Part shown: positions 1,583-5,915 of the stretch, piece by piece
How positions within the stretch are numbered: the first letter of the stretch is position 1
How the letters are laid out: every line of letters starts with the position of its first letter
Assembly (NCBI GenBank): GCA_965263295.1
Contig: OZ253665.1
Location: 320,001 to 384,000, forward strand
DNA: 64,000 bases
Source of the DNA: Spirochaetia bacterium
GTDB lineage: Bacteria; Spirochaetota; Spirochaetia; SP-2023
Direction of reading: 5' to 3'
Notes under the pieces: model-generated
What the model was told of the DNA's origin: nothing
What the model saw: the letters and a program-made list of their open reading frames with translations, nothing else
The model's database searches: none
Made by a program: the position numbers and the translations under genes

Positions 1583-1646
1583 ACCAACAAACTAATTAAA
1601 CGGCAGCGACAGCTCGCTGTCGCTGCCGTTTAATTAGTTTGTTGGT
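1583..1646. repeat. Perfect 31-bp inverted repeat with 2-nt spacer (64-bp hairpin/cruciform)
   Basis: accaacaaactaattaaacggcagcgacagc (1583-1613) + tc + exact reverse complement (1616-1646). Confidence 0.97.
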
Positions 1647-1685
1647 GACTGTGGTCAATCCAAGCATGGTGGCCAGAATACTTGC

Positions 1686-1714
1686 TTGTCGATTCATAAT
1701 CGACGTGCTATAAT
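1686..1714 (+). promoter_or_regulatory. Sigma70-type promoter of dapF-dapL, overlapped by a palindrome
   Basis: TTGTCG (1686-1691), 17 bp, TATAAT (1709-1714) with TGn extension; perfect palindrome gtcgatt-cat-aatcgac at 1688-1704. Confidence 0.7.
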
Positions 1715-1746
1715 TTCGAGGAAAAACTCACTGAGGAATTCTTTAT

Positions 1747-2706
1747 ATGCAAGCTGCGGATTATTTTCGTTATCACGGCTTGGGCAACGACTATCTGGTC
1801 ATGGACCCGGCCTTCACAGGGGTGCCGATTAACAAGGAAACTGTTCGGTTGATCTGTCACCGCAATTTGGGTGTCGGTTCAGATGGCATTTTGTACGGGC
1901 CACTGCCCAACCCCAAAAGTAGTGCGCCAGATGGGCCGCGATATTTCCAGATATGGAATCCGGACGGTTCTGAGGCTGAAAAGAGCGGTAATGGGATCCG
2001 CATATTTGCCCAGTATTTGCTTGATCAAGGCTATGAGCAGGGGCCGGGATTTTTGCTGGAAACTTTGGGGGGCCGGGTCCACGTTGAAGTCGTGGATGAT
2101 AAAAAGCACATTCTGAAGGTGCAGATGGGCTATGCGACCTTGCATGCCGAGGAAGTTCCCGTGGATGTGGAACAACTGAGTTCTCACAATACGAATGAGC
2201 GCGGTGAAGTGGTGGCCTTGACCTTGGAGGCCGGCAAGCGCGATTTTACGGTAACCTGTGTCAGTATAGGCAACCCGCATTGTGTGGTGATTGACGATGG
2301 AGGCCGGGAGGGTATCTCGGCCGAAGAAGCCCATATTTATGGGCCTTTGATTGAAAATCATGCGGCATTTCCCAATCGTACCAACGTGCAGTTTTTGAGA
2401 GTTCATGATAAGAATACGATACAGATTGAAATATGGGAGCGGGGTGCCGGCTATACTTTAGCCTCTGGTTCAAGTAGCTGTGCCGCGGCGACTGCCGCGT
2501 GGCGCAATGGGCTGGTTGAATCGCCGGTGCGGGTGCGAATGCCTGGCGGTGAATTTAGCATCTCCATTAAGCCGCTAGCTGAAGCAGAAAGTTGCCCGGA
2601 AATTGAGTGGCAATACGCTTGTGCCCGCCTGGAATTGACCGGGCCGGTCTCCGCCATCTGCGGCGGCATGTTCTTGCCGGATTTTAAACAGCAGTTAAAA
2701 CAGTAA
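1747..2706 (+). CDS. dapF: Diaminopimelate epimerase family protein, Ser/Ser active-site variant
   Basis: HGLGNDY, GVGSDG, NPDGSEAE, VSIGNPHCV, RTNVQF and WERGAG motifs; catalytic positions read EKSGNG and TLASGSS. Confidence 0.88.
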   Translation: MQAADYFRYHGLGNDYLVMDPAFTGVPINKETVRLICHRNLGVGSDGILYGPLPNPKSSAPDGPRYFQIWNPDGSEAEKSGNGIRIFAQYLLDQGYEQGPGFLLETLGGRVHVEVVDDKKHILKVQMGYATLHAEEVPVDVEQLSSHNTNERGEVVALTLEAGKRDFTVTCVSIGNPHCVVIDDGGREGISAEEAHIYGPLIENHAAFPNRTNVQFLRVHDKNTIQIEIWERGAGYTLASGSSSCAAATAAWRNGLVESPVRVRMPGGEFSISIKPLAEAESCPEIEWQYACARLELTGPVSAICGGMFLPDFKQQLKQ

Positions 2707-2740
2707 GTTACAATTCATTGATTCACTCTCAGGAGATGCT

Positions 2741-3922
2741 ATGGAAGTAATGTATTCCGAGCGCATTAGCGATACAAAGCCGTATCCTTTTGCCGAAATT
2801 GATAAAAAAGTAAGCGATTTGCGCGCCTCTGGGCAGCGAGTGATTGACTTTGGGGTCGGAGACCCCGCCAGTCCAACGCCGGATTTTGTGATTGATGCCT
2901 TGCTCGCAGCCGGTAGGAAGCATGCCTGCACAGGGTATCCGAGTTATATCGGTTCGCCGGGTTTTCGTGAAGCTGCGGCCAAGTATATGAAGGCTACTTT
3001 TGGCCTGAATCTCAATCCCGACACACAGCTCAGCTCGACTATTGGTTCGAAGGAAGCGGTGTTTAACTTCCCTTTGGGCTTTGTCAATCCAGGCGATGTC
3101 GTGATCTGCCCGACGCCGGGTTACCCGGTATATGAGACGGGTACAAGGTTTGCTGGCGCCAGGCCGTATATGGTTCCCCTGTTGCCAGAAAACAACTTTC
3201 TGATTGATTTAAAAGCGATTCCTGTAAAGATTGCGCAAAAGGCCAAAATTATCTGGACAAATTATCCCAACAGCCCTACGGGCGTCACTGCCCCCAAAGA
3301 GTGGCTGGAGGAACTCCTGGCCTGGAGCCGAAAGTACAATGTCATTATTGCCGCCGATGAGGGCTGTTACATTGATATTTATTTTGGCGAGCGGCCGTTG
3401 TCGATTTTAGAATTGGCTGGCGATGCTTACGATGGAGTGATTACTTTTTACTCGCTATCCAAACGCAATAATATGACGGGCTATCGCGCGGGCTTTGTAG
3501 CTGGCGATCAACGTATTATTGATGGCTTTAAAAAGGTTAAGACGAATATTGATTCAGGTACGCCTAATATTCTGCAAGATGTTTCTGCGCTGGCCTTGCT
3601 GGATATGGAGCATATTCGGCAGGTGCGCGAGGAATACCGCGAAAAACGCAAACTTATGATGGCTGCCTTTGAGTTTGCGGGCTTACCTAAAACCCCAGGT
3701 GATGCGACATTCTACTTGTGGCAACAAGGCCGGGCGGAGATGTCTGGCCTGGACTTTGCCGCTAGGTTGCTTGATCTGGGCATTGTCGTGACGGCCGGTG
3801 CAACAATCAGTCAAACTGTAGACGGTAAAAATCCGGGAGAGGATTTTGTGCGCTTTGCTCTCGTTCCTTCTATTGAAGATGTCAAATATGCCGCAGAACT
3901 TATTGAAGAAGGCTTTCATTAG
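2741..3922 (+). CDS. dapL: PLP-dependent class I/II aminotransferase, probably LL-diaminopimelate aminotransferase
   Basis: PYPFAEID, IDFGVGDP, IGSKEA, NYPNSPTG and SLSKRNNMTGYRAGF (PLP Lys); immediately downstream of dapF. Confidence 0.78.
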   Translation: MEVMYSERISDTKPYPFAEIDKKVSDLRASGQRVIDFGVGDPASPTPDFVIDALLAAGRKHACTGYPSYIGSPGFREAAAKYMKATFGLNLNPDTQLSSTIGSKEAVFNFPLGFVNPGDVVICPTPGYPVYETGTRFAGARPYMVPLLPENNFLIDLKAIPVKIAQKAKIIWTNYPNSPTGVTAPKEWLEELLAWSRKYNVIIAADEGCYIDIYFGERPLSILELAGDAYDGVITFYSLSKRNNMTGYRAGFVAGDQRIIDGFKKVKTNIDSGTPNILQDVSALALLDMEHIRQVREEYREKRKLMMAAFEFAGLPKTPGDATFYLWQQGRAEMSGLDFAARLLDLGIVVTAGATISQTVDGKNPGEDFVRFALVPSIEDVKYAAELIEEGFH

Positions 3923-4015
3923 GTTGATTTATTGGTTTTAAAAAAAACTGGGAATATTGCAAACGATAGCTAGAAACGTGTAGCAGTTGCAAGATGCTGT
4001 AGGCAGGTACCGAAG

Positions 4016-4519
4016 ATGAAGAACACCAACGCACAAGATAAAAAACGACAACGGGAGCTTAATCTGGGTGTCGTTACGTGTTATCTGGTGGCTAGTGCGG
4101 CTCGTCTCTGTGGAATTTTTTGGCGGCGACAAGCTGTTGCGAGTGAGAAGGTTGAGCTATCTGGCTCTTCTGTAGTTTTGGATGAGACGGAACGACAATT
4201 AAGAGAATATTTTGAGGGTGAACGACAAGGCTTCGACATCCCTATAAATCTGGCCGAGCTTGAAGGAACGGAGTTCCAACGGCAAGTCTGGTCTCAGTTG
4301 CAGACGATACCTTATGGAGAAACCTGTTCTTACAAGGAGCTGGCAACTTCGTTGGGCAAGCCCAAAGCTTGGCGGGCAATCGGGACGGCCAACGGGCGAA
4401 ACCCGCTCAGCATAGTGATCCCTTGTCATCGTGTCATTGCTGCTGACGGGAGCCTGGGGGGCTATGCGGGCACTTTGTCTGTAAAAAGAATGCTGTTGGA
4501 ATTAGAACAAGCTGAGTAA
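4016..4519 (+). CDS. ogt: Methylated-DNA--protein-cysteine S-methyltransferase
   Basis: [27 protein letters not shown] and IPCHRVI (active Cys). Confidence 0.92.

Positions 4520-4607: not shown

Positions 4608-5915
<1,308 letters not shown>

Follow-up and report, generated by a model that had tools for sequence, protein, structure and literature searches.

Can a diaminopimelate epimerase (DapF) that carries serine at both of its catalytic cysteine positions be the working enzyme of a cell, and what would its product then be used for? The question is raised by a dapF gene in a 64,000-nucleotide stretch of a Spirochaetia genome (contig OZ253665.1, positions 320,001 to 384,000; hereafter the window). 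The chemistry is striking, as two serines take over a task that was believed to require thiols; it has been in print since 2025, and members of the class are numerous. Lamer, van Belkum, Chen et al. (2025, J Mol Biol 437:169375, PMID 40774471; cited in PMC13728532) identified DapF enzymes that keep the fold but use two serines in catalysis, and this is the recent report to which an earlier note on this DNA had pointed. As described in PMC13728532, the Ser/Ser DapF of Anabaena sp. YBS01 is inactive once its serines are changed to cysteines, and this strain holds both DapF forms, possibly against oxidative stress, the physiological relevance being unproven. The distribution of the class, the genomes with a sole copy and the co-varying residues described below may already be covered by Lamer et al. 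(2025).

We consider it probable (about 85%) that the locus serves a complete route to lysine. The neighbouring aminotransferase would make LL-DAP from tetrahydrodipicolinate, the Ser/Ser DapF would invert one centre by two-base proton transfer between Ser80 and Ser240 to give meso-DAP, and LysA would decarboxylate meso-DAP to lysine. The serine catalysis in this scheme is taken from the cited report; the fold, the residues, the copy number and the pathway genes come from our analysis of the genome, whereas the activity of this protein is inferred. As the earlier note proposed, such an enzyme may also be oxidation-resistant.

The dapF gene and its two serines

The dapF reading frame (1747-2706, + strand), assigned by profile, alignment, model and tree, encodes an intact Ser/Ser-type diaminopimelate epimerase of 319 residues with no internal stop in its translation. 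The protein is a member of the TIGR00652 DapF family (200.9 bits, cut-off 114.65) and contains two DAP_epimerase stretches by PF01678 (163.6 versus 34.7). Residue 80 is serine (AGC, 1984-1986) within SEAEKSGNGIRI, and residue 240 is serine (TCT, 2464-2466) within GYTLASGSSSCA. Both align with the catalytic cysteines in the EMCGNG and TLACGTG motifs of Arabidopsis 3EJX and cyanobacterial 9MRO, in the columns of Cys75 and Cys224 of 9MRO as numbered in PMC12039745. Alignment and tree rows likewise place the Lys79-Ser80 pair (AAG AGC, 1981-1986, + strand) at the first catalytic Cys position and the Ser240-Gly-Ser-Ser stretch (2464-2475, + strand) at the second. The protein is therefore not a canonical DapF, having Ser80 and Ser240 instead of the two catalytic cysteines, and by sequence and model it has what marks the Ser/Ser form, namely serine at both positions in an intact DapF fold. 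Comparison with solved structures thus agrees with the earlier note, which had read both replacements in an undisrupted frame. Judged by its serines and fold, the window gene is a further ordinary member of the published Ser/Ser class. It and the Anabaena enzyme share serines at both catalytic Cys positions and the same overall fold, but the Anabaena form accompanies a Cys/Cys DapF (PMC13728532), whereas the form here is the sole DapF detected and lies 5' of a likely dapL. Among 17 PDB sequences matched, the five alignments examined contained no Ser/Ser chain.

The AlphaFold model of the protein (pLDDT 92.8, pTM 0.90) gave top fold matches that were all DapF, the best being 9MRO (E 3.6e-29). 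Canonical DapF enzymes (EC 5.1.1.7; TIGR00652, PF01678; 9MRO, 3EJX, E. coli 4IJZ, H. influenzae 1BWZ) have the same fold (TM 0.74-0.78 by query length) at 30-34% identity, with the DAP-binding residues kept. The modelled helices begin at residues 81 and 241, and Ser80 and Ser240 are predicted to sit at helix N-ends, as do the cysteines in 9MRO (PMC12039745). Using the DAP-binding residues listed for 9MRO in PMC12039745, we mapped by hand Asn13, Asn66, Gly76, Asn77, Asn164, Asn197, Glu215, Arg216 and Gly225 to the identical residues N14, N71, G81, N82, N176, N213, E231, R232 and G241, and the salt-bridge partner Glu73 to E78. Thr226, which becomes Ser242, is the one exception among the DAP-binding residues; the earlier note had read the remaining DapF motifs as intact. 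All of the mapped DAP-binding residues are invariant in an alignment of 120 homologues.

Around the serines that replace the thiol pair, the window protein differs from canonical DapF in having K79 for Met, Q215 for Glu or His, I86 for Cys, and GSSS for GTGA. Residue 79 is Lys in 96/96 Ser/Ser tree rows and Met in 20/22 Cys/Cys rows, while residue 243 is Ser in all 96 of the former and Gly in all 22 of the latter; the positions that divide the two sets include K79, I86, Q215, Y236 and S242-S244. In the proposed mechanism, Ser80 and Ser240, at the N-ends of two active-site helices, would remove and return the alpha-proton, and the clade-specific neighbours Lys79, Gln215 and Ser243 may help them to do so. 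The residues that change with the serines (K79, I86, Q215, S242-S244) offer direct targets for learning how serine is activated.

Sequencing error or a local mutation as the source of the serines is ruled out by the homologues, the congeners and public runs X1-X3. All 120 homologues listed are Ser/Ser, and one of them, encoded in a different assembly, is 99% identical to the window protein. The best named homologue belongs to Candidatus Haliotispira prima (74%), on which our search of the Haliotispira literature found nothing beyond a names list, and further named homologues are mostly from Bacillota, at about 50%. Both serines are kept in three congeners, the first as an AGY codon and the second as TCY. 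Contigs from runs X1 and X2 (one sample, which may be the one that yielded the genome) match positions 1617-4000 with no differing letter, and those from run X3 show nine differing letters, of which eight are listed and none of those eight falls in either Ser codon. Contigs from run X4 have 53 differing letters, among them one unplaced C>G that leaves position 2465 undecided for that run. The earlier note had taken cysteine in close orthologues or reads as grounds for abandoning its claim, and such cysteine did not appear in the homologues, the congeners or the identical runs.

Other cysteines were also considered as substitute catalysts, and alignment argues against each. C245, which the earlier note had singled out in ASGSSSC, is not the catalyst, since Cys/Cys enzymes too have a cysteine in this column, the second one of ACGTGAC, and 5 of 120 homologues do without C245. 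C179 likewise has a counterpart in Cys/Cys enzymes in addition to the catalytic pair, and C283 and C292 sit in an insertion missing from about 110 of 121 rows.

The gene is conserved and, as judged from sequence comparison, is under purifying selection rather than decaying. For congener dapF pairs, dN/dS was 0.059 and 0.066 in the two of six pairs that were measurable, dS being saturated in the other four, and 60 alignment columns are invariant over the 120 homologues. These values bear out the earlier preference for a selected Ser/Ser enzyme. We hold it highly improbable that the protein is inactive or on its way to decay, in the manner of the DapF-like relics seen in other Spirochaetia. Cys-to-Ser changes do hinder catalysis in Cys/Cys enzymes (PMC12039745), and the class has many degenerate DapF-like genes, with 60 of 201 genomes having only below-cut-off DapF matches. 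However, the relics that we read are without the motifs and binding residues that are invariant here, the dN/dS of about 0.06 is that of a constrained gene, and a natural Ser/Ser member is reported to be active (PMC13728532).

Spread of the Ser/Ser form

Named genomes were scanned with the seeds EAEKSGNG and YH[AG]LGNDY, which gave at least 587 confirmed DapF relatives, and the best 80 loci were analysed. The best 80 of these at least 587 relatives are all Ser/Ser and come from many phyla, the second serine being the only independent count as the first lies within one of the seeds (EAEKSGNG). In a quick tree, the 22 Cys/Cys rows are separated from the 96 Ser/Ser rows, window protein included, which make up a single clade (SH-aLRT 100); the rows were gathered by likeness to the query, and other Ser/Ser lineages may exist. 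The clade holds two cyanobacterial rows (L061 from Okeania, and L129), gathered in the same way, and the sister of the window protein's own seven-row group is not resolved in this tree. Across the best 80 loci, the codon is AGY at the first site in 71/77 and TCN at the second in 75/79 readable cases. The earlier note had taken the use of two Ser codon families as a sign of selection at this locus, an argument that does not stand, as the AGY and TCN pattern is clade-wide and inherited. Because the homologues and loci are all Ser/Ser, fall in one clade and share codons that run through it, the Cys-to-Ser swap is, by sequence comparison, inherited rather than made here, and predates this spirochaete genus.

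We then considered how carriers hold the gene. In the first 50 carrier genomes of the best 80, many of them incomplete assemblies, the Ser/Ser gene is the sole DapF match in 31 and is joined by further matches in 19. The 16 top-scoring extra copies are all Cys/Cys, giving at least 16 of 50 genomes with both forms, and in such genomes the Ser/Ser copy may have a side role. Among the 80 Ser/Ser loci (the best 80 of at least 587), only 12 have a lysine-pathway match within 4 kb, several of these matches being weak ones (24-29%) to aminotransferases or decarboxylases; linkage with dapA and dapB is seen in four of the same 80. Candidatus Bandiella (L077), with a 1.3-Mb Midichloriaceae chromosome, carries its genes in a tight dapB-dapA-dapF(Ser/Ser)-dapL unit, with ORFs on either side that by eye look transposase-like, and its Ser/Ser dapF is the only DapF match in that chromosome.

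DapF passed the cut-off in 19 of 201 Spirochaetia genomes, comprising 12 Cys/Cys, 4 Ser/Ser and 3 irregular forms, and the four Ser/Ser genomes all belong to the genus of the window. Elsewhere in the class there are degenerate DapF-like ORFs (L011-L017, L046-L056; about 280-295 aa) from which both catalytic motifs and most DAP-binding residues are gone, and several of these sit beside lysC, asd or a dapL-like gene. DapF domains also occur in very long frames of 1369 and 1436 aa (L027 in G131 and L034 in G194), with Ser/Cys and Ala/Cys at the catalytic positions, and a similar 1349-aa open frame with a DapF domain is present in G235.

The aminotransferase and the lysine pathway

The genome is a single contig of 2.41 Mb, rated 92.6% complete. 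Searches of it with PF01678 and tblastn found one dapF and no Cys/Cys paralogue at this completeness; the earlier note had proposed looking for a Cys-type dapF and lysA elsewhere, and of these lysA is present. DapA, DapB, LysA, one Asd model and two aspartokinases (lysC) passed NCBIfam cut-offs, no genome match to Ddh exceeded its cut-off, and an E. coli-type DapD was not found in the genome. By eye, three hexapeptide proteins read as a Vat/CatB-type acetyltransferase, a gamma-carbonic-anhydrase-like protein and GlgC, and the single M20 protein as PepD. With no Ddh or acylase route found, the one-step aminotransferase route therefore remains. A check for DapF2, the PLP-type epimerase, gave one genome match to an Alr motif; GapMind 2026 (PMC13759103) treats DapF2, an Alr2-like family, rather than the Ser/Ser form. 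Because this is the sole DapF of a one-contig genome, in an otherwise complete lysine route with no bypass found, the window copy provides genomic support that the Ser/Ser form can be a cell's working enzyme. As a separate observation, the Vat/CatB-like hexapeptide acetyltransferase (1558429-1559088 of the contig), so named by eye, could be an enzyme that modifies antibiotics.

The aminotransferase gene (393 aa, 2741-3922, + strand) starts 34 bases past the dapF stop on the same strand, and from this spacing the two genes would be co-transcribed. The protein is a class I/II PLP type whose PLP site, judged from the sequence, is the lysine of SLSK (residue 241). Its best-scoring families are LL-DAP aminotransferases, all below cut-off (PRK09276, 383.5 against 507; TIGR03540, 373.7 against 593.25), DapC TIGR03537 also falls short (338.4 against 453.6), and the nearest solved structures carry names other than DapL. 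No assayed close relative was found, and the only other aminotransferase in the genome by tblastn is 28% identical. Relatives at 47-49% identity stand in lysA-dapF(Cys/Cys)-dapL units in four genomes of one spirochaete genus, a relative at 60% is that of the Ca. Bandiella unit, and among named proteins from outside the genus those of Midichloriaceae come closest (59-62%). The two window genes are neighbours in three of the four genomes of the genus, the congener G002 being without the aminotransferase after dapF.

The profiles, the gene context of these relatives and the missing acylase route make the protein a likely LL-DAP aminotransferase (DapL). It stands in a lysine-pathway context without DapD/DapH, DapE or Ddh, in a genome rated 92.6% complete whose hexapeptide and M20 proteins were named by eye. 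With DapL of the PRK09276/TIGR03540 type it shares its best-scoring families, the PLP lysine motif and, among relatives, a dapF/lysA/dapA/dapB context, but it differs in lying below the curated cut-offs. The earlier claim of an operon of dapF with dapL therefore stands as to adjacency, strand and spacing, while the name DapL is only likely.

Could the epimerase have a different amino acid as its substrate, such as lanthionine or a diamino acid, with the meso-DAP for LysA coming from salvage or a PLP epimerase? The DapF fold does host other racemases (7VDY, an O-ureido-serine racemase), clade-specific changes lie near the site (K79, Q215, Y236, S243), and LysA need not imply DapF, as a LysA-like gene is found in 164 of 201 Spirochaetia genomes versus the 19 with DapF over cut-off. 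Yet N71, N176, N213, E231 and R232, which recognise the distal amino acid of DAP, are all kept, and the gene is linked to the DapL-like gene in three of four genus genomes and to dapA/dapB in 4 of 80 loci (the best 80 of at least 587). The genus's LysA also differs from the class-wide type, and the published Ser/Ser member acts as a DapF (PMC13728532). We regard this alternative as quite improbable. The earlier note had left a different substrate as an option, which the kept DAP-binding residues, together with our finding no other meso-DAP route, make unlikely, and DAP epimerisation is the reading that we prefer.

The lysine genes of this genus also appear to have an unusual history. LysA, present in all four genomes, is 23-28% identical to the common Spirochaetia form, which is its own clade of 13 rows (SH-aLRT 100). 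In a quick tree of 27 rows, the aminotransferase groups with Midichloriaceae (SH-aLRT 93), apart from five other spirochaete rows (99); the outgroup is a very long branch, and we claim no direction or donor. Because dapF, dapL and lysA group apart from the forms of other Spirochaetia, their trees, which are quick, sparsely sampled and improperly rooted, suggest that all three were imported into the genus from outside the class. The trees do not support a replacement in which a Ser/Ser dapF took the place of a relic gene ahead of a spirochaete dapL inherited vertically, as the aminotransferase groups with Midichloriaceae and not with spirochaetes. Recent transfer judged by composition was also set aside, the GC3 of dapF (55th percentile) and dapL (27th percentile) among 1307 long ORFs giving no signal. 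A fuller account, which we offer tentatively and think rather doubtful as a whole, is that the ancestral spirochaete DapF decayed and that the genus then rebuilt its late lysine pathway from imported genes, namely dapL, a Ser/Ser dapF and a lysA of non-spirochaete type. The thiol-free epimerase would then be the sole source of meso-DAP, for lysine only, with invariant Lys79, Gln215 and Ser243 letting the serine hydroxyls act as acid and base.

The common Spirochaetia LysA form (L201-L220) carries HTMVASNEL in place of HxHIGS. This form may act on salvaged meso-DAP or directly on LL-DAP, and the latter, if true, would account for dapF decaying in cells whose walls hold ornithine.

The use of meso-DAP and the flanks of the locus

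The earlier note considered a DAP route notable beside the ornithine walls of Borrelia, Treponema and Spirochaeta. Ornithine is reported in the stem peptide of treponemes and Borrelia (PMC8092773), and DapL-type lysine routes have already been described in Treponema (PMC4176475), which gives the DAP route a spirochaete precedent. The genome's MurE (563456-565198 of the contig, - strand) reads EDPR and not the DNPR expected of a meso-DAP-specific MurE, a four-letter motif being a weak predictor of wall chemistry. The solved meso-DAP ligases read DNPR and the Thermotoga lysine ligase reads DDPR. EDPR is found in 118 of 120 MurE homologues, of which the named ones are from Haliotispira, Treponema and Spirochaetales, and in 27 of 30 Spirochaetia MurE loci, the remaining rows lying outside the pattern. 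Because the MurE motif is the Treponema-type EDPR and not DNPR, meso-DAP here likely serves lysine rather than the wall, and with it the contrast drawn by the earlier note probably falls away.

An active DAP epimerase whose meso-DAP also enters peptidoglycan, so that the wall would differ from the ornithine type of Treponema and Borrelia, seems improbable to us. The genome does hold a full DAP route, its MurE is divergent within the class (370 bits, versus 380-524 for most full-length matches), and the database names of MurE homologues say 'diaminopimelate ligase'. That name, however, is also given to proteins of Treponema, whose walls hold ornithine (PMC8092773), and EDPR is what the named Treponema MurE proteins carry. 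LysA is, moreover, a sufficient use for meso-DAP, and lysine synthesis remains our preferred reading of the locus.

Upstream of dapF, an nfeD gene (with a C-terminal NfeD domain) and an SPFH/Band 7 gene form a pair (58-1573) in an ordinary arrangement. Between the SPFH gene and dapF lies a perfect hairpin with 30-bp arms (1583-1646), a sequence found once in the genome, which is likely the terminator of the nfeD-SPFH unit. This hairpin breaks assemblies, and its left arm differs in run X4; it is one of 20 perfect hairpins in the genome, with arms of 18-30 bp and mostly unrelated sequences. A sigma70-like promoter match follows (TTGTCG-17-TATAAT, with TG before the -10 box; 1686-1714, + strand), identified by consensus alone at 10/12, in a region where six promoter-like matches were found versus 4.6 expected by chance. 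Shine-Dalgarno-like sequences precede both genes on the + strand, GAGGAA (1733-1738) eight bases 5' of the dapF ATG and AGGAGA (2731-2736) 5' of the aminotransferase ATG. Downstream of the aminotransferase are ogt, for an O6-methylguanine methyltransferase (4016-4519, + strand), and, convergent with it, the enolase gene (4608-5912, - strand).
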